Part shown: positions 3,100 through 53,193 of the stretch, one piece after another
How the letters are laid out: every line of letters starts with the position of its first letter
Numbering within the stretch: the first letter of the stretch is position 1
Assembly (NCBI GenBank): GCA_964401485.1
Contig: CAYNYL010000005.1
Span: 8,158-72,157, forward strand
Source: an uncultured Gammaproteobacteria bacterium
GTDB lineage: Bacteria > Patescibacteriota > Patescibacteriia > UBA9934
DNA: 64,000 nucleotides
Reading direction: 5' to 3'
Translations under genes and position numbers: made by a program
Notes under the pieces: generated by a model
Told to the model about the DNA's origin: nothing
What the model saw: only the letters and a program-made list of their open reading frames with translations
Databases searched by the model: none

Positions 3100-4245
3100 T
3101 TATTGCCGAATAGGCATGATCAAGTAAATTTGTCGCCGATCCTCTGGCATCACCCGTGGAACAAGGGTGCACGGCCGGTCCTTATCGAGAACCCCGAGTA
3201 CGAGCTCTTCCGACTCAATTGCATTCACTCCATCAAGAAGGTACCGATAGTTAAGGACAATCATCTTCGCCTCCCCATCAACCGGTCCATCAACTCCAAT
3301 CGTATTCTCTCCTCGACTCGCATCCGCACCAACGAGATCAATTCCATCGAGCGTTTCGCGAACTTTTATCGCAACATCGTTAAGCCCATTTCGTGAAAAG
3401 AGACTTGAGGTCTTAATTGCCTGCACAAACTCCTTCTTTGAGAGAAGAATTTCCGTCTTTTTCTCCTTAGGGAGAATTTGGCGATAGTTAGGGTATTGCC
3501 CCTCGATCGTTCGGCTCGTTACCCTGATATTTGCATAGGAAAAGACCATCTGCCCCTCGCCAAGATGAAGGTCAACGGTTGGTGGAGCATCCGGCTCGTC
3601 TTGATACATGGAAAGAATGCGCAGAACTTCCGCAAGCGTACGGCTTGGCGCAATAACCGAGATCGCTTCCTTTGGCCCAGACGATACCCGAGAGACGACC
3701 TCACTTAAGCGGTAGCTGTCGGTTGCCGCAAAGACCACCGACCCTTCACCCTCCTCAAGATGATTAAACGCAATGTAAACACCCGCAAGCTCCGGACGCG
3801 ACTCATTCGTCGCGGAAGCGAAGATCACCTGCGAGAGGGCCTCCTTGAGCGCCGTAATCGAGAGTCCAAACGCTACCCCTCCCTCGACCGGAGGCACAAG
3901 CGGATAATCCGCCGAAGGAATCCCTTTAATTTTCGTTTTCGCCTTCTTTGAAGCAACAAAGAGTGTGTCATCGTAAAGATCGAGATCCACTCGATCATTT
4001 GGAAGAAGTGACACGACGTCAAAGAAGAGCTTGGAGGGAACGGTATAGCTACCCTGCTGATCCACCTTTCCTCGAATCGAACAGGAGATGGCAAGTTCAA
4101 GGTTTGTCGTTACGAGCTGAATCCCTGAGGCGTCCGCTTCTATATAAACATTATTGAGAATTGGAAGATTGACGTTCTTCGTACTTGCACGTGAAACGAT
4201 TGCTAACCCCCTTTGTAAGTTCTCTTGTGTACAGGATGCTTTCAC
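3100..4245 (-). CDS. dnaN: DNA polymerase III beta subunit (sliding clamp)
   Basis: The N-terminus (ENLQRGLAIVSRAS..LPIL) and overall length are typical of DnaN. It lies immediately downstream of dnaA. Confidence 0.9.
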   Translation of the reverse strand: MKASCTQENLQRGLAIVSRASTKNVNLPILNNVYIEADASGIQLVTTNLELAISCSIRGKVDQQGSYTVPSKLFFDVVSLLPNDRVDLDLYDDTLFVASKKAKTKIKGIPSADYPLVPPVEGGVAFGLSITALKEALSQVIFASATNESRPELAGVYIAFNHLEEGEGSVVFAATDSYRLSEVVSRVSSGPKEAISVIAPSRTLAEVLRILSMYQDEPDAPPTVDLHLGEGQMVFSYANIRVTSRTIEGQYPNYRQILPKEKKTEILLSKKEFVQAIKTSSLFSRNGLNDVAIKVRETLDGIDLVGADASRGENTIGVDGPVDGEAKMIVLNYRYLLDGVNAIESEELVLGVLDKDRPCTLVPRVMPEDRRQIYLIMPIRQ

Positions 4246-4470: not shown

Positions 4471-5907
4471 CTAGTTTGCGTAGAGCTTTTGCTTGATGAG
4501 CTCGATGTCTCGCTTGAGGGTTTCGCTTTCTGCAACCATCTCTTTAATCTTTGAGTAGGCGTGCATTGCGGTCGTGTGGTCTCGTCCCCCGAGCTCTTGT
4601 CCAATTGATGGGTACGAGCTCTTCATTTCTTCTCGTAGAAGGTACATGATGATTTGTCGCGGGAAAGCGAGGCGCTTTTCTCGGCTCTTTCCAAGAACAT
4701 GGTCCATGTCGATATCGAAATAGTCGGAAACGGTGATGATGATTTGCTTTGGAGAAATCGTCTTTTTCATTGAATCCGAACCGTAGCTCGCGATTAGGGG
4801 TTTGATCGAGTCAATCGTGGCCTTGATGTTTTTGAATTGGTGCCAGGCAATGATTTTATTTAAGGCGCCCTCGAGCTCTCGGACATTGGATTGAATGTTC
4901 TCGCAAATATAGTGGAGCACCTCGCGTTCAAGGTTTACGCCGCGATTGAGGCACTTGGCGTGGAGGATGGCAATACGTGTTTCGAGGTCAGGGGCTCCAA
5001 TATCAACAAGCATTCCCCACTCGAGACGAGAAAGAAGACGTTTTTCAAGACCGGCGATCACTTTTGGTGCGCGATCAGAGCAAATGACGATTTGTTTGTT
5101 CTCTTGATGGAGGGCATTGAACGTGTGGAAGAACTCTTCTTGGGTCCCCTCTTTTCCTGTAATGAACTGGATGTCGTCAATTAAAAGAACGTCGACATTG
5201 CGGTAGCGATCCTTGAATTCTTTGGCTTTTCCTCCGCGTACCGCTTGGATGAAGTCATTTGTAAACGTTTCACATGTTACATAGAGGGCGCGACTTCCTG
5301 GTTTTCGACGAAGGATCTCGTTTCCAACCGCGTGTAGAAGGTGGGTTTTACCAAGTCCGACGCCCCCGTAAATAAAGAGTGGGTTATAGGTACCTCCTGG
5401 TTGAGCTGCTACTGCTTGTGAGGCGGCGTGCGCGAGCTCGTTTTGCTTTCCGACAACGTAGTTATCGAAAACGTAGTGACGGTTGAGACCGCCCGCCTTA
5501 TCAAAGCCCGTTGTTTCGGCTCCCGCGAAGCTTTCGCTGGTAAATCCGAGATCTTGTGGTGCTTCTTCCGTGTGTTGTGGGCGGATATCGAGGTAGATGT
5601 GCTTTTCCGCTGGCTGTTGCTTTTCAAAAATGACCGGCTCGGGCTCGCGAGGGCGTGTTTCGATTCGGTATTCGAGATTTCGAATGGTTTGCTCCGTGAT
5701 CGATTGGAGTGTTTGTAAAATGTCACGATGATATTTCTTCTCAAGCCAGGTTTTCGTGAACGTGTTTGGAACAGCGATGGTAAATCCCTGATCGGTCACA
5801 TTCGCGATGAACGTGTTTCTAAACCAAGTAGTGAATTGGGCCTTACTGAGTTTGAGTTCAAGCTCGCCAAGGGCGGCTTGCCACAGTTCGTGGGTGTTCA
5901 TAAGCAT
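4471..5907 (-). CDS. dnaA: Chromosomal replication initiator protein DnaA
   Basis: AAA+ Walker A GGVGLGKTHLL and a C-terminal DnaA-box-binding domain. Confidence 0.95.
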   Translation of the reverse strand: MLMNTHELWQAALGELELKLSKAQFTTWFRNTFIANVTDQGFTIAVPNTFTKTWLEKKYHRDILQTLQSITEQTIRNLEYRIETRPREPEPVIFEKQQPAEKHIYLDIRPQHTEEAPQDLGFTSESFAGAETTGFDKAGGLNRHYVFDNYVVGKQNELAHAASQAVAAQPGGTYNPLFIYGGVGLGKTHLLHAVGNEILRRKPGSRALYVTCETFTNDFIQAVRGGKAKEFKDRYRNVDVLLIDDIQFITGKEGTQEEFFHTFNALHQENKQIVICSDRAPKVIAGLEKRLLSRLEWGMLVDIGAPDLETRIAILHAKCLNRGVNLEREVLHYICENIQSNVRELEGALNKIIAWHQFKNIKATIDSIKPLIASYGSDSMKKTISPKQIIITVSDYFDIDMDHVLGKSREKRLAFPRQIIMYLLREEMKSSYPSIGQELGGRDHTTAMHAYSKIKEMVAESETLKRDIELIKQKLYAN

Positions 5908-5957: not shown

Positions 5958-6036
5958 ATATCCACAGCTCACAAGCCGGCCATTTGTGTGGATTTTGAGG
6001 ATAACTTTGTGGATAAGTCGACTAAACTGTGGACAA
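5958..6036. promoter_or_regulatory. DnaA-box cluster upstream of dnaA and overlapping the rpmH upstream region (oriC/dnaA promoter region)
   Basis: atATCCACAg at 5958-5966, TGTGGATT at 5987-5994, TGTGGATAA (perfect) at 6008-6016, TGTGGACAA at 6028-6036. Confidence 0.7.
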
Positions 6037-6282: not shown

Positions 6283-6624
6283 ATGAAAATCGCAAATCAC
6301 CGACTTCGTAAAACAACCGATATTGAGCGTGCCTATAAAAAAGGCCAAAGTATTTACGATTCCGCGGTTGGTGTTAAAGTGTATCGTCGCGGAGACGCCG
6401 AGCCTATGCGCATCGCGTTTATTGTTGGGGTCAAGGTGAGTAAGCGCGCGGTTGAGCGCAATCGCCTGCGACGTCAGTATCGAGAACTTGTGCGAGAACT
6501 GATTGTTAACCCGAAACCGGGGGTTGACGTGCTTGTTCTTGTCTCGCGTCCCTCGCTTGAACTTACGTTTGCCGAAAAGCGCACGCGAATCGAGCAAATC
6601 TTGAACCGCGCAAAGCTCTTATGA
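6283..6624 (+). CDS. rnpA: Ribonuclease P protein component
   Basis: Basic ~113-aa protein directly after rpmH. Family-typical KKGQ..RLRR motifs. Confidence 0.85.
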   Translation: MKIANHRLRKTTDIERAYKKGQSIYDSAVGVKVYRRGDAEPMRIAFIVGVKVSKRAVERNRLRRQYRELVRELIVNPKPGVDVLVLVSRPSLELTFAEKRTRIEQILNRAKLL

Positions 6625-11400: not shown

Positions 11401-11997
11401 TTAGTTAGTTGAGGGGATGGGTTGATAGTATCGCAAGAGGATAAAAAGTCCAAGGACGATGAGGATATCTGAGAAATTGATAACGCTTCGAGAGAAAACG
11501 ACGAGATAATCAATGGTAAACCCGTGGATGAGGCGGTCGACGAGATTGCTTGTTGCTCCAAGGAGCATGAAGAGTGCTCCAACGGCGATAAGCGGTCGAT
11601 CGCGATATTCGCGCCAAATGGTGCGAAGAAGGGCGAGGGTCGCGATTCCCGTTACGATCGTGACGATCTCGAGTGGGATTGGCGCGCTGAAAGCGACGCC
11701 CGGATTTTTAAAAAGTGCAAAGTCAAAAATTGGCGCTGTAGGACCTGTGATTTCCGGGAGCGCTGTCAGGGCGTATTGTTTGAGAACAATGTCCGCAATC
11801 AACAAAAAAACACCGACAAGCGCAAAAAGGATTGCTTGTCGTGTGCTTTTAGAGTTCTTGAGTGAGAGTTTTTTTACTTGCGACAGATGAGGTGGAGGTA
11901 GGGCGTGCGCGTAGACGGTCTTCGCTAATGAGCTCGCCTGTATATTTGCAGATACCGTAGGTGCCCTTTTCGATGCGTTCGAGGGCCGTATCAACAT
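11401..11997 (-). CDS. lspA: Lipoprotein signal peptidase II (start uncertain)
   Basis: LspA motifs NPGVAFS, NLVDRL, TIDY, INFSDI. The long ORF begins at 12081 and overlaps the upstream DksA-like gene by more than 200 nt. Starting at the ATG at 11997 still leaves a ~148-nt overlap, and no ATG/GTG exists in the non-overlapping part. Confidence 0.7.
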   Translation of the reverse strand: MLIRPSNASKRAPTVSANIQASSLAKTVYAHALPPPHLSQVKKLSLKNSKSTRQAILFALVGVFLLIADIVLKQYALTALPEITGPTAPIFDFALFKNPGVAFSAPIPLEIVTIVTGIATLALLRTIWREYRDRPLIAVGALFMLLGATSNLVDRLIHGFTIDYLVVFSRSVINFSDILIVLGLFILLRYYQPIPSTN

Positions 11998-12235
11998 CGC
12001 GAACAGCCTTTTCAAGTTCTTGCTGAACTTGGAGGTTGTTTGTGTAGTCGGCGATTTCGATCGCGTTTTCGTCTTCGTCATCCCCGTAGTCTGGAAAATG
12101 TGTTTCGTAGGAATTCGTGGACGTGTTTTTCTTTGAAAGTCGGCTTAGGGCCGCTGCGAGCTTTTCCTTTTCCTTCTGTAAGACGCCCCGCATTTCTTCA
12201 ATAAACGCCTGATTGTGAGCTTTTGTTTTTGCCAT
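11849..12235 (-). CDS. DksA/TraR-family protein with a degenerate zinc finger
   Basis: C-terminal GTYGICKYTGELISEDRLRARP matches the TraR/DksA C4 region but retains only one Cys. Confidence 0.6.
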   Translation of the reverse strand: MAKTKAHNQAFIEEMRGVLQKEKEKLAAALSRLSKKNTSTNSYETHFPDYGDDEDENAIEIADYTNNLQVQQELEKAVRDVDTALERIEKGTYGICKYTGELISEDRLRARPTSTSSVASKKTLTQEL

Positions 12236-12736
12236 AGAGCAGGTTTAGATATGGGTCAGCATAGCCTAGACGCCTCCATGTGGCAAGAAAATCGGGAAAA
12301 AGAAAAAGGGCGCGGTTGCTATTGGCGATAGAATTAATGGCCATAGCGGTAGCGCCCACGACATGGTTGACACCGGTCGTGGACACTGGGTTTTTATGAC
12401 CAATTTCTTGATCGTAACAACTCAGTGGCCAGTCGGCGCGCTTACCATGTAAAAACTGACATCCTACTCTACCATGAGGTGGTCTACGGGCCTTGTGCGC
12501 GCAAACCTGATGTGTGCACCCCCAGTGCATAGCATCACAGTACAGTAGTGGGATGTGCCCCGAACGATTGTCCCGAAAGCAGCTGACTTTCAGGTGTGGG
12601 ATTCGGGGAACCTCCCCCGTGTCATTGCTGGTAGATGACCAGCAAACGGGAATTGTTGAAAGAACTACTATTAGTATAAACCTTGAACACAAATAGTCAA
12701 CATCGAAATAGCTCAAATTTAAAGGCTTTTTTGAGA

Positions 12737-12810
12737 TTGTGGAAAAGTTTTGTGCGGTGGTTTCCACAAAGCTGTGGATAACTTATGCATATCCCACAAG
12801 TTATCCACAG
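12737..12810. promoter_or_regulatory. Third DnaA-box cluster
   Basis: TTGTGGAAA at 12737-12745, TTTCCACAA at 12761-12769, TGTGGATAA (perfect) at 12774-12782, ATATCCCACA at 12789-12798, TTATCCACA (perfect) at 12801-12809. Confidence 0.6.
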
Positions 12811-12816
12811 TTCCTG

Positions 12817-13887
12817 TTAGAAGCAGATACGTAGCGCTCGATTCGATTCGGCAATGGTTTTAGCGTCTACGGTAATAAAGCTGTGCGCGTGGCGCAGGCA
12901 ATCATTCTCGATTTGTCGTGATACGAGCTCGGCCGTTGGTATGATTGTTGTAATTGTTGAAATTTCCTGCGTTTTAACAATGTAGAGATTGATATTGGTG
13001 CCGGTGAAGCTCACGATCGTAATGTCACCATCACTTGAAATCTCTGGAATTGGAGCAGTCCCCTCAATTCTCGTTCGTTTATAGAGATCTACGCTTGTCC
13101 ACGCCTGTGTAGACAAAGATTGTCTTGCGAGAAGTTCCGTTCCAAATTGAATCAATGTTTGCGTATCAAGACTTGAGCTGGTCGTAAGATGGAAAAACGG
13201 TTCGTTATGAATTGTGCCTTGAATCAGTCTGTATGGACCCATTCCGTAAATCAACTCGGAAGTCGCACTATTTGATACGGAAGTGATTTCTGCGTTTGCC
13301 GGAAGATGCACGGAGCTTTTAATAAATGGATCGTGACCGTGTCGAATAGTGATCGCATGGTTTTGAACGCGAACAGCGCTAAGGTTGTCGCTATGTTTAT
13401 AGAGTCCGTCCGCAAAAAGTGTACGAATGAATAGGACTCGTCGAGGTTTTGGATGTACGGCGAGCTCGACTGTCGAAATTGTAACAATGCGGCCCGCTCT
13501 TTGAACAAAGAGTCCGGTATTCGTGGCCTTGGCGAGGAACGCTTCGTCACTTCGGTCGACCGTGAACCCGACTAGCCCCGCGTTTGAATAATGAAATGCG
13601 ACTCCCTTCGAATTGGTTTGTGCAAGATCTGCGAGCGAATACGGCATGCCTTGAAGGGTGACGGCGTTTTGTTCGCTTAAGTTCTTGGCCCTGAGCGTAT
13701 TTTTGAATGCAACCGTATCGATTTCTTGATTTGAGACCGCATTCACAACGCGTAAAGATTCAGATGTCGCAACGTGCACCAAAAGCACAAGTAAAAACAG
13801 CAGACCTGATACGGCAAGAATCGCGAAAACCCGCCATTCAGTATGGCGGGCCCTGCGTTCTGTGAGTGAAATTGAGAGATTGTCCAT
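12817..13887 (-). CDS. Hypothetical membrane-anchored protein (N-terminal TM, large beta-rich ectodomain)
   Basis: A long ORF with a good Met start and a hydrophobic segment FAILAVSGLLFLLVLLV. I did not recognise a family. Confidence 0.55.
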   Translation of the reverse strand: MDNLSISLTERRARHTEWRVFAILAVSGLLFLLVLLVHVATSESLRVVNAVSNQEIDTVAFKNTLRAKNLSEQNAVTLQGMPYSLADLAQTNSKGVAFHYSNAGLVGFTVDRSDEAFLAKATNTGLFVQRAGRIVTISTVELAVHPKPRRVLFIRTLFADGLYKHSDNLSAVRVQNHAITIRHGHDPFIKSSVHLPANAEITSVSNSATSELIYGMGPYRLIQGTIHNEPFFHLTTSSSLDTQTLIQFGTELLARQSLSTQAWTSVDLYKRTRIEGTAPIPEISSDGDITIVSFTGTNINLYIVKTQEISTITTIIPTAELVSRQIENDCLRHAHSFITVDAKTIAESNRALRICF

Positions 13888-13888
13888 G

Positions 13889-16141
13889 TTATCTAGAGAA
13901 CGGTCGTCGAGGTCCGCGCGGTCCTTGGCCTCCCTGTGGACGCTGTGGTCGGCCTCCTTGCGGACGCCCGGCCGGTGCTCCGGTTGCGGCTTTTGCCTTC
14001 ATTTCTTCCGTATAGACATTACCTTCCGCCTGCTTCATCGACAGGTTGGTTCGACCCATGTCGTCGATTTCAATGACTTTTACCTTGACTTTGTCTCCGA
14101 CCTGTACGATATCATCGACCTTCGCGACTCGCCAAGGGGCGAGCTCGGAAATATGAACGAGACCTTCTTTTCCAGGAAGACATTCAACGAATGCTCCGAA
14201 GTCCATAAGGCGTGTTACCGTTCCTTCGAACAGCTCTCCCGCCTCGATCTCCCGTGTCATGTTGTGGATCCAATCGAAGGCCTTTTTCGCCGACTCTCCG
14301 TTTTTCGCGGTGATCATAACGAGTCCTGATTGTTCGATATCGATCGAAACAACACCGGTTTTTTCAATGATCTCGTTGATCATCTTTCCTCCCGGTCCGA
14401 TCACTTCTCGGATCTTTTCCGGATTAATCGTGAGGCTTGTGATACGTGGAGCGTTTGGCGAGAGTTCCGCTCGCGGTTCGGCGATCACCTTTGCCATTGC
14501 GTCTAGGATTGAAAGACGCGCAGTGTGCGCTTGCGTAAGGGTTTGCGCAATGATTTCCATTGTTAACCCTTCGGTCTTTGTGTCCATTTGGATTGCCGTT
14601 ACGCCGTCCTTTGTTCCTGTAATCTTAAAGTCCATTCCTCCCTGGCCGTCTTCCACGTCTTGAAGATCGGTGATAACGCGGTAGGCGCTTCCGTTTGAAG
14701 CGAGTCCCATCGCGATACCCGCTACCGGTTTACGAAGCGGAACGCCGGCGTCCATAAGCGCGAGCGTTGAGGCGCAGGTCGAAGCCATCGACGATGAACC
14801 GTTTGAGTCGAGGACTTCGGAAACGACACGAATCGTGTACGGGAAGGTTTCCTTTTCTGGAAGCATTCGGCGTACAGCCTTTTCGGCGAGCGCTCCGTGT
14901 CCAATATCACGGCGAGACGCTCCTCGAAGTGGTTTCGCCTCTCCTACCGAGAACGGAGGGAAATTGTAGTGGTGCATGTAGCGCTTCTCCCCAACGAGCT
15001 CCATTCCGTCGAGCGTTTGTTGATCGCCCGGAGCTCCAAGCGTACAGATCGAGAGGACCTGTGTTCCTCCGCGGTTGAAATGACCCGATCCGTGAACACG
15101 CGGAAGAAGTCCAACGTCAATCGTTAGTGGTCGAATCTCTTCAATTCCGCGACCGTCGATCCGTTGCCCCTTCTCGATAATGTATCGCGAGGCTTCCTCT
15201 TGAACGAAGTCGTAAATAAGTCCTGTCGCAACCTTAATTTGGTCAGGAGTCCATCCCTTTTCCGTAAAGTGTGCAATCGTTTCGGCTTTAAGTTGATCTT
15301 TCTTCTCATTGCGTACGGACTTCTTTGTGATAGGCGCCGAGAAGAAGAGGTCCGCCATTCGCTCGCGTAGGAACGTTCGAGCCTCGGCGATAAGCGCTTC
15401 CTTTTCTTCACGCTTCGTCTTCTCTGTCTCGTTTTTTGGCGAGAGCAAATCTTTCTTTGGCTTTCCGACTTGTGCACGAACGGTCTCGATAAGTTCGATT
15501 ACCGGCTTAAGCGACGCGCCTCCAAGCTTGAACGCTTCGAGAAGTTCGTCTTCCTTTGCTTCGTCCCCTTCCATTTCAATCATCACGATTTTTTCCGGTG
15601 TACCGGCAAGGTCAAGATCAAATTTTGTGGTAAGACGCTCTGAGTAGGTTGGGTTAATGACCCAGTTATCCGAAATCTTTGACATGCGCACAGCTCCAAT
15701 CGGTCCATTCCATGGAATGTCGCTGATATGGAGTGCGGCTGAAGCTCCGATAAGCCCGAGGATGTCTGGATCGTGTTCTTCGTCGAAGGCAAGAACGGAA
15801 ACAATAACTTGCACCTCGTTCTTAATACTTCCGTTAAAGAGTGGGCGGATTGCGCGGTCAATAAAGCGCGCAACAAGAACCGCCTCGTCGGTTGGTCGAC
15901 CCTCGCGCTTGATAAAGCGTGACCCCTTAATTCGTCCCGCCGCGTAAAGCTTCTCTTCGTACTCAACCATGAGCGGGAAGAAATCCATGTCGCGGGTTTC
16001 CGAACTCATAACCGCCGTCGCAAGAACGACCGTTTCACCCATCTGCACAAGAACGGATGCGTTTGCGGATTGCGCAAATGCGCCGACCTCAATGATCAGT
16101 TCCTTCTCCCCTACCTTTGTTGTAAATCGTTGTTTTTCCAT
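13889..16141 (-). CDS. pnp: Polyribonucleotide nucleotidyltransferase (PNPase) with a C-terminal Arg/Gly/Pro-rich tail
   Basis: Two RNase PH domains, then KH and S1 domains. The tail reads GRPQGGRPQRPQGGQGPRGPRRPFSR. Confidence 0.95.
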   Translation of the reverse strand: MEKQRFTTKVGEKELIIEVGAFAQSANASVLVQMGETVVLATAVMSSETRDMDFFPLMVEYEEKLYAAGRIKGSRFIKREGRPTDEAVLVARFIDRAIRPLFNGSIKNEVQVIVSVLAFDEEHDPDILGLIGASAALHISDIPWNGPIGAVRMSKISDNWVINPTYSERLTTKFDLDLAGTPEKIVMIEMEGDEAKEDELLEAFKLGGASLKPVIELIETVRAQVGKPKKDLLSPKNETEKTKREEKEALIAEARTFLRERMADLFFSAPITKKSVRNEKKDQLKAETIAHFTEKGWTPDQIKVATGLIYDFVQEEASRYIIEKGQRIDGRGIEEIRPLTIDVGLLPRVHGSGHFNRGGTQVLSICTLGAPGDQQTLDGMELVGEKRYMHHYNFPPFSVGEAKPLRGASRRDIGHGALAEKAVRRMLPEKETFPYTIRVVSEVLDSNGSSSMASTCASTLALMDAGVPLRKPVAGIAMGLASNGSAYRVITDLQDVEDGQGGMDFKITGTKDGVTAIQMDTKTEGLTMEIIAQTLTQAHTARLSILDAMAKVIAEPRAELSPNAPRITSLTINPEKIREVIGPGGKMINEIIEKTGVVSIDIEQSGLVMITAKNGESAKKAFDWIHNMTREIEAGELFEGTVTRLMDFGAFVECLPGKEGLVHISELAPWRVAKVDDIVQVGDKVKVKVIEIDDMGRTNLSMKQAEGNVYTEEMKAKAATGAPAGRPQGGRPQRPQGGQGPRGPRRPFSR

Positions 16142-51587: not shown

Positions 51588-53078
<1,491 letters not shown>

Positions 53079-53193
53079 CATATATAGTTTATAACCCGAA
53101 GGTTATAGCTCTGCTTAAATAGACGTTGCAATCACACAGTTGTCAATTCTTTCTGTAGAGCCAATTTGGCTCGTTTTTAATGACCACGGGGGC

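Follow-up and report, generated by a model that had tools for sequence, protein, structure and literature searches.

What is carried by a gap between two genes that holds no convincing gene of its own? The question arises in the 64-kb window analysed here (the whole stretch of DNA, 64,000 nucleotides of contig CAYNYL010000005.1), where a gap at positions 12236-12816 lies directly upstream of a gene for a DksA/TraR-type zinc-finger protein, itself followed by lspA. A sequence-only reading had described this gap as a structured region ending in a cluster of DnaA boxes, and had named an unannotated non-coding RNA (ncRNA), a long 5' leader of the dksA-like/lspA operon and a DnaA titration locus as candidates. 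The interpretation that we favor, at a probability of about 0.6, is that the gap constitutes a self-contained minus-strand gene for a structured RNA of ~375 nt that falls outside the described families and whose promoter is under the control of DnaA. Following the minus strand, the order is DnaA boxes, sigma-70 promoter, multi-domain RNA, terminator, the promoter of the dksA-like gene, and the dksA-like/LspA genes. The host was placed in Patescibacteria (the candidate phyla radiation, CPR), near Uhrbacteria, by its 16S rRNA and its protein relatives, and in Patescibacteria of the Uhrbacteria type the module of boxes and RNA is always found directly upstream of the dksA-like-lspA pair.

A conserved, covarying RNA on the minus strand

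Relatives of the locus, denoted L001 and onward, were reached by three routes. The product of a spurious 189-aa open reading frame (ORF) in the gap pointed to L001 and L002, L003-L011 were identified from DksA-like homologues at 54-90% identity, and a DNA pattern of the conserved blocks was scanned, together with a DksA alignment, against genome and metagenome collections; among the matches listed from the genome pattern scan, ~90% were chance matches (Bacteroidales, Actinobacteria) and ~10 were true loci. Using nhmmer profiles built from the close clade, we found the RNA once per locus in 68 Patescibacteria sequences, 50 of them distinct and full-length, and in a single copy in the window. 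A dksA-like gene follows the RNA on the same strand in 67/67 loci, including nine that were found by the RNA pattern alone, at a distance of 79-339 nt from the core (median 127). The dksA-like gene has an ORF-less gap of 530-730 bp in front of it in all syntenic loci, and in L002 the DNA from promoter to terminator is ~97% identical while the flanking genes diverge.

That the gap is structured, as had been proposed, is borne out by folding z-scores of -5.9 (plus strand) and -6.8 (minus strand) against dinucleotide shuffles, the predicted transcript having z = -6.65. Covariation in relatives, the check suggested by the sequence-only reading, proved strong. In six hand-defined helices, comprising 45 pairs in a MAFFT alignment of the 50 distinct sequences, 86.4% of the cells are paired, compared with 39-52% after displacement of the 3' partners by 1-3 columns, and double changes occur in 32 of the 45 pairs (269 cells); the observed values were reached in 0/500 shuffles. 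Three helices stand at 92% or above: the CCCGAAG/CUUCGGG hairpin with CCCAC in its loop (92% paired), the long-range helix CUNCUNUACU/GGUAGAGNAG (92%) and the 3' hairpin with the invariant UGAGUU/AACCC (93.5%). When RNAalifold was applied to the 3' domain of 47 sequences, 19 pairs were predicted, 17 of them compensatory; on the MAFFT alignment, it did not recover helix H6. Two further candidate pairings, between AACAA of the 5' tail and UUGUU of the 3' domain and between a CCCA loop and a UGGG loop, were invariant or inconsistent and were not counted as evidence. The strand of the RNA can be fixed as minus because R1, a covariance model built for the 3' domain, gives 58.3 bits for the minus strand against 17 for the plus strand, and because G-U pairs, which would read A-C on the opposite strand, are frequent (GU in 24/50 and 25/50 sequences at two pairs). 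Taken as a whole, we consider it very probable that a real, structured RNA is transcribed from the minus strand.

The fold combines conserved helices with regions that differ between lineages. The palindrome CCCGAAAG-cagctg-aCTTTCaGG, which had been picked out from the sequence alone, is real; it lies at 12572-12594 and forms a lineage-specific hairpin within the loop of the conserved helix H3. Helix H4, an 11-bp long-range helix that is nested inside H1 among the helices definable here, encloses a variable central domain in which the window has a hairpin with the loop UGGGGG. In the more distant type II RNAs (L157, L172, L179, L197, L200, L207) there is an A-rich tract, AAAACAAAAACAAAAGC, made of perfect A-R-N triplets and followed by the conserved CUAGGUUAGC, and this (ARN)n tract takes the place of the UGGGGG-loop hairpin of the window clade in the central domain. 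No conserved reading frame runs through the A-rich tract of the distant members.

The RNA is predicted to start at ~12666 and to extend over ~12666-12297, i.e. ~375 nt. Its promoter elements, TTGACW....GTGTTCA and TAnAAT, are kept in relatives down to 50% DksA identity, and at least 45 of the 50 distinct sequences have a terminator (hairpin plus U-tract) after the core, mostly 43-68 nt past it. Two side observations concern these elements. In type II relatives (L172, L179, L200, L207, L190, L144), a palindrome TTGACC-N3-GGTCAA spans the -35 hexamer and the -10 element is extended (TGGTATCAT), while the window clade keeps TTGACW-N4-GTGTTCA; either this or the type II palindrome could be the operator for a further regulator. 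The terminator hairpin (12308-12357 in the window, and in L105, L152, L006 and L055) has a recurring internal loop with AACCGC on its 5' side and GCAACC on its 3' side, and the two-tiered hairpin may serve as a functional part of the RNA beyond termination.

DnaA boxes upstream of the RNA promoter

Five DnaA-box-like elements lie within 72 bp (12738-12809), and the perfect pair among them is inverted, as the sequence-only reading had described in counting five such elements with two perfect, convergent ones. The whole window contains five perfect boxes, and its 20 matches at ≤1 mismatch, versus 9.3 expected, were a number reached in 0/100 shuffles. At least two closely spaced consensus TTATCCACA boxes are present here, in excess over chance, and they are conserved at the equivalent site in relatives. 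Box 2 is invariant in L001-L003, L006, L007, L009 and L010 while the neighbouring spacer has diverged, and the position of box 3, which has one mismatch in the window, is occupied by a perfect TTATCCACA in L006, L009, L010, L093, L162 and others. At least one perfect box is found at -110 to -190 relative to the 5' end of the RNA in all 49 of the distinct loci that have 260 nt of upstream sequence, and at least two in 44 of them. Viewed from the protein gene, a perfect box is present in 63 of the 64 dksA loci for which 850 nt upstream were available, where ~0.4 would be expected by chance.

The boxes occur in two architectures. In the first, found in 21 distinct loci, they form an inverted pair, TGTGGATAA-N19-TTATCCACA, with 28 nt from start to start; a third perfect TTATCCACA lies 36 nt beyond the pair in 7 cases and 35 nt beyond in 2 more, and in the remaining loci of this architecture the third position is a one-mismatch box, as in the window, or no box. 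The second, found in 15 loci, consists of two direct TGTGGATAA boxes 31 nt apart. The sequence of the inter-box spacer is not conserved among relatives. The arrangement is one of 2-4 consensus boxes at a fixed distance, 40-115 bp upstream of the -35 hexamer of the RNA promoter. Since the boxes are retained in L011, where the upstream gene is a different one, they belong to the RNA/dksA module. We regard the boxes as quite probably functional, and the balance tips narrowly toward their controlling the RNA promoter.

Features of the locus and its surroundings

Table 1. Features of the window at and around the gap. Strand is given as (+) or (-).
Feature	Position	Strand	Remarks
Gap without genes	12236-12816		between two minus-strand genes
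Conserved RNA core	12669-12369	(-)	nhmmer E=1e-47; 5' single-stranded GUUCUUUCAACAA, H1-H4, variable central domain, 3' domain
Helix H3, CCCCGAA/UUCGGGG	12558-12608	(-)	near-invariant CCCAC in loop, plus the inserted hairpin; double changes at 6/8 pairs
Long-range helix H4, CUACUGUACU with GGUAGAGUAG	12548-12539 with 12473-12464	(-)	double changes at 6/9 pairs
3' domain	12366-12445	(-)	long bulged hairpin, invariant UGAGUU/AACCC, flanks GCGCCG/CGGUGU
RNA promoter, sigma-70-type	-35 TTGACT 12700-12695; -10 TATACT 12678-12673	(-)	near-consensus; 16-nt spacer; 10/12 matches
Intrinsic terminator	hairpin 12357-12308; UUUUUCUUUUU 12307-12297	(-)	two-tiered GC-rich hairpin
Promoter of dksA-like gene, TTGCCA-17-TATGCT	12286-12258	(-)	100% conserved between window and L002
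DnaA box 1, perfect TTATCCACA	12801-12809	(+)	reads TGTGGATAA on RNA strand; distal partner in inverted pair
DnaA box 2, perfect TTATCCACA on RNA strand	12773-12781	(-)
DnaA box 3, TTTTCCACA	12738-12746	(-)	1 mismatch; ~35 nt past box 2, ~40 nt before -35
Two DnaA-box-like sites	12760-12768 and 12783-12791		2 mismatches each
356-aa ORF	12817-13887	(-)	promoter-distal neighbour of boxes; no Pfam match; N-terminal hydrophobic stretch
DksA/TraR-type zinc-finger gene, 128 aa	11849-12235	(-)	Pfam PF01258; ATG at 12235; followed by lspA
lspA			downstream of dksA-like gene; Pfam PF01252
dnaN	3100-4245	(-)
dnaA	4471-5907	(-)	DnaA domain IV conserved, PF08299
Four-box DnaA cluster	5958-6036		separate; between dnaA and rnpA
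rnpA	6283-6624	(+)	RnpA, PF00825; adjoins dnaA, four-box cluster between
Polynucleotide phosphorylase (PNPase) gene	13889-16141	

The neighbouring genes are largely shared with the relatives. A counterpart of the 356-aa ORF (349-417 aa), located 3' of PNPase, is the upstream neighbour kept in most of them. The longest lspA ORF of the window (226 aa; 11401-12081, minus strand) overlaps the dksA-like gene by 233 nt; as LspA has 138-152 aa in most relatives, the true lspA start is probably an internal codon just past the dksA stop. In L011 (Magasanikbacteria; 4896-5760), rpmH-rnpA-yidD come directly after dksA-lspA, and because dnaA and oriC usually have these three genes beside them, the box/RNA/dksA module may lie close to the origin group-wide.

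The rRNA genes and the database labels deserve a remark of their own. A 16S rRNA gene is at 51589-53085 (minus strand), with tRNA genes on one side of it (a cluster at 50.2-50.6 kb), and there is no 23S rRNA match anywhere in the 64-kb window, an arrangement that resembles the unlinked rRNA genes known for CPR (PMC8172020). The same RNA as in the window is present in L063, L069 and L089 (CAZBFR010000002.1, CAZMTL010000003.1, CAYFMS010000001.1), records that are titled 'uncultured Gammaproteobacteria'; in L063 and L069, the two that were checked, the gene order is that of Patescibacteria and identical to the window, and the Gammaproteobacteria labels are probably wrong.

Alternative interpretations

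Several points weigh against the interpretation of the gap as a DnaA-controlled RNA gene. Helices H1 and H6 are weaker than the others, at 71% and 63% paired in the MAFFT alignment, where they are partly misregistered, and the covariance model covers the 3' domain (R1) rather than the full-length RNA. In approximately 20 farther dksA loci, the boxes and the -35 hexamer are present along with some 5' motifs, but the 3' domain is not, and the R1 model does not find it in L011, L139-L141, L161, L169, L185, L201 and others; these loci retain GUUC(U/A)UU at the 5' end as well as G(U)GGUAGARG and could represent remote variants whose 3' half differs. With regard to DnaA, the boxes lie 75-150 bp upstream of the predicted RNA start, and in some relatives the terminator hairpin of the upstream gene sits between box 3 and the -35 hexamer, so that a role of the boxes unrelated to the RNA promoter is possible. 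Linkage to dksA without exception is what one would classically expect of a cis-regulatory leader and not of a free RNA. The presence of rnpA at 6283-6624 means that the genome must encode an RNase P (ribonuclease P) RNA, which we did not locate. Finally, it is we who infer the transcript ends, the binding of DnaA and the direction of regulation.

The alternative that survives best, though we think it unlikely, is that the RNA is a cis-acting 5' leader of dksA-like-lspA, be it a riboswitch, a T-box or a protein-binding attenuator, in which a ligand-dependent fold would set termination versus read-through. The unbroken same-strand position upstream of dksA and the terminator between structured core and dksA in nearly all members speak for it, and there are known leaders and operons around the same gene pair. 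In Bacillus, the dksA-like-lspA pair follows an ileS gene under T-box control (ileS T-box-ylyA-lspA), with the same two downstream genes. In Chlamydia, the pair belongs to an nrdR-dksA-lspA operon, which has promoters ahead of nrdR as well as within the operon (PMC9126822). At the locus described here, the place upstream of the pair is taken by an RNA gene with DnaA boxes, as opposed to a protein gene in Chlamydia or a T-box leader in Bacillus; NrdR, for its part, also connects the pair to DNA synthesis, and the Chlamydia operon thereby provides an independent tie of dksA-lspA to the control of DNA synthesis.

What speaks against a leader is found in the RNA and downstream of it. Neither T-box nor riboswitch families match at E≤10, and the T-box motif is absent. 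The terminator stem begins a few nt after the last conserved helix, with no overlap between them, and there is no consistent antiterminator pairing; one that could be drawn by eye in L039 and in the window, between the 5' arm of the terminator and the 3' strand of H7, is not found in type II members and was not counted. The core, at ~300 nt, is far larger than most aptamers. A separate promoter for the dksA-like gene lies past the terminator, and as it is 100% conserved in L002 and promoter-like sites are enriched at this place in relatives (19/46 versus 4.0 expected), an independent unit is favored over a leader. Of the long 5' leader originally suggested, the position and strand hold in all loci, but the terminator and the separate promoter argue against such a leader; it is the perfect RNA-dksA linkage that keeps this alternative alive. 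On the side of the protein gene, we observed that in L055, L096, L127, L160, L164 and L194 a promoter, TTGACA-17-(G/A)ATAGT, ends 9-13 nt before the ATG of the dksA-like gene, which implies a nearly leaderless mRNA in these six loci.

A linkage of this kind is also seen in the ssrA-smpB type of adjacency, in which an RNA gene stands beside the gene of its protein partner. There, likewise, a stable RNA gene is kept next to one small protein gene across wide divergence; the extension of this to binding of the RNA by the DksA-like protein is pure analogy.

Less probable still is that the box cluster itself is what matters, either as a DnaA reservoir or titration site close to the origin, in the manner of datA or the DnaA-box clusters of B. 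subtilis, or as one part of a split origin, with the RNA gene functionally unrelated to it. Both perfect and conserved, the boxes are located only ~6.8 kb away from dnaA and the skew minimum, species-specific DnaA-binding clusters tend toward the vicinity of oriC (PMC2533591), and boxes in E. coli accumulate near the origin (PMC12371093). Set against this, the boxes number just 2-4, stand at a fixed distance to the promoter in each of two architectures, and accompany the RNA/dksA module in L011 when the upstream gene differs; moreover, titration would leave the covarying RNA unexplained. An origin within 12236-12816 was rejected, as the cumulative GC skew reaches its minimum elsewhere, between dnaN and dnaA at 2-4 kb, and the site has no more than 2-4 boxes; the stretch from box 3 to the promoter is short and carries a terminator hairpin in relatives. 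The datA/DARS-like titration locus of the sequence-only reading keeps its boxes, which are real and conserved, while their small number and fixed promoter distance fit promoter control better. In E. coli, datA, DARS1 and DARS2, which act in DnaA inactivation, reactivation and titration (PMC12371093), are likewise non-origin box clusters close to oriC, but they require sites for IHF/Fis and specific box arrays; nothing shows such elements here, where 2-4 boxes are tied to a promoter. Promoter control and bulk titration are not mutually exclusive, and titration is compatible with the explanation that we prefer.

It is very improbable that the element is a highly diverged universal RNA, above all RNase P RNA or else transfer-messenger RNA (tmRNA), signal recognition particle (SRP) RNA, 6S RNA or a group I intron. 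RNase P RNA is the most serious of these candidates, given that RnpA is encoded in the window while Rfam finds no RNase P RNA in its 64 kb, that ~375 nt would suit such an RNA, that rpmH-rnpA follow dksA-lspA in L011, and that the RNase P RNAs of CPR needed lowered thresholds for their detection (PMC8172020). The RNase P RNA models (RF00010/RF00011) gave no match to the element, neither at the gathering score nor at E≤10 in four diverse members (the window, L010, L011 and L172), and CR-I (GAGGAAAGUCC) and CR-V (ACAnAAnnnGGCUUA), the conserved regions that form helix P4, were each found in just 2/50 members with 2 substitutions allowed and are absent from the copy in the window. The topology differs as well: RNase P RNA has a P2-P3-P4...P2'-P4' pseudoknot, its P4 crossing P2, whereas H4 is nested in H1, as far as helices can be defined here. 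The CPR RNase P RNAs described by Lui et al. (2021; PMC8172020) share with the element the phylum, a similar length, a score below the default Rfam thresholds and an RnpA in the genome; they do match RF00010 at reduced score, with many conserved features according to the authors, and five genomes of class ABY1 gave such matches, whereas the element here has no RF00010 match at E≤10, lacks CR-I/CR-V and has a nested topology.

The other families fare no better. At E≤10, the same four members gave no RNase P, tmRNA, SRP, 6S, T-box or group I intron match in Rfam, just as the Rfam search proposed earlier found no RNA-family match for the element at curated thresholds. For tmRNA, ARAGORN found none in the window, the T-loop motif is present in 0/50 members and the A-rich tract of the distant members has no conserved reading frame; the SRP motif likewise occurs in 0/50. 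The T-box was rejected on the lack of an RF00230 match at E≤10, on the absence of GGGUGGUACCGCG (0/50 at 2 substitutions) and of any consistent alternative pairing by eye, and 6S RNA on its ~180-nt rod with a central bubble, which the branched ~375-nt fold does not resemble. Diverged group I introns of Patescibacteria can escape RF00028 (PMC13011429), so the Rfam negative alone (at E≤10) is weak in their case; a group I intron, however, needs a P3-P7 pseudoknot and flanking exons, and the element is free-standing between its promoter and terminator, with supported helices that are nested. The earlier proposal of an unannotated structured ncRNA is borne out in kind, by an RNA that is conserved, covaries and has a promoter and a terminator of its own, but not as to RNase P RNA, SRP RNA or tmRNA as its identity; the first and last of these were not found elsewhere in the window either (by Rfam and ARAGORN, respectively).

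Among the large orphan structured ncRNAs that comparative genomics has brought to light in bacteria, OLE, ROOL, GOLLD, HEARO and raiA are all Rfam families. Like them, the RNA described here has several hundred nt, is multi-domain, covarying and phylogenetically restricted, and has a function that is not obvious from its context; unlike them, and without a match to them in sequence or structure, it comes with a conserved array of DnaA sites and one invariant protein-gene neighbour. No description was found in the literature that we searched for a comparable CPR RNA. In our assessment, the RNA represents a new family, and it is unusual in being coupled to DnaA boxes.

That the 189-aa minus-strand ORF (12198-12767) is a real gene for a Cys/His-rich protein is refuted for practical purposes: a stop-free ORF spanning the entire gap is somewhat unexpected by chance and was called as a gene in two metagenomes, but it has zero Pfam matches and only 2 near-identical relatives among 5.8 billion proteins, a 1-nt indel disrupts the frame in L002 although the DNA is still ~97% identical, farther relatives have many indels in the gap with lengths that are not multiples of three, and the substitutions within it are compensatory for the RNA helices. 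Frame and amino-acid similarity are not kept in relatives, and the judgement that the gap is without a credible coding sequence is upheld.

A possible link between replication and an RNA

If the gap is a DnaA-controlled RNA gene, it can be envisioned that DnaA would bind the boxes cooperatively and tune initiation at the RNA promoter, such that the abundance of the RNA would track the availability of the initiator and the status of replication. The RNA would be released at its terminator and could act as a stable trans-acting RNA, perhaps in cooperation with the neighbouring DksA-type protein, a factor that binds RNA polymerase. There is a precedent for the first step in B. subtilis, where DnaA bound at clusters of boxes upstream acts as an activator of sda and a repressor of ywlC and yydA (Ishikawa et al. 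2007, PMC2533591). Those clusters are likewise composed of a few high-affinity consensus boxes, are intergenic and near oriC, are conserved among relatives, and stand beside a promoter whose output could report initiator status. The present case differs from them in that the unit is a large structured RNA and not a protein gene, in that the regulation is our proposal, and in box geometry, which here is either an inverted pair spaced by 28 nt and accompanied by a third box, or a direct pair spaced by 31 nt.

A more far-reaching and rather doubtful extension is that the boxes, the RNA and the DksA-type zinc-finger protein make up one replication-sensing module of CPR bacteria, in which DnaA occupancy would set the level of the RNA, and the RNA, alone or as a particle with the DksA-like protein, would bring global transcription or translation into line with the replication cycle. 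Taken further, the idea would have the RNA feed back on initiation at the origin nearby.

Patescibacteria make up a large share of bacterial diversity, with genomes of ~1 Mb and few known regulators, and to our knowledge their non-coding RNAs and the control of their cell cycle are almost entirely uncharted. The RNA likely has an important job, because it is strongly selected, being kept at one locus with strong covariation while the neighbouring protein is only ~50% identical. The 50 distinct sequences, together with the structure model and the motifs, could be made into an Rfam-style model, which would put an end to the spurious calls of a Cys/His-rich protein. If boxes, RNA and DksA-type protein do form one replication-sensing module, this would mean a new class of RNA and a new kind of connection from the initiator to gene expression in organisms whose regulatory repertoires are minimal. 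The invariable coupling to DnaA boxes and to a DksA-type factor gives rise to a testable hypothesis, the DnaA-dependent expression of a structured RNA, and would offer an entry point to the coupling of replication and transcription in uncultivated bacteria.

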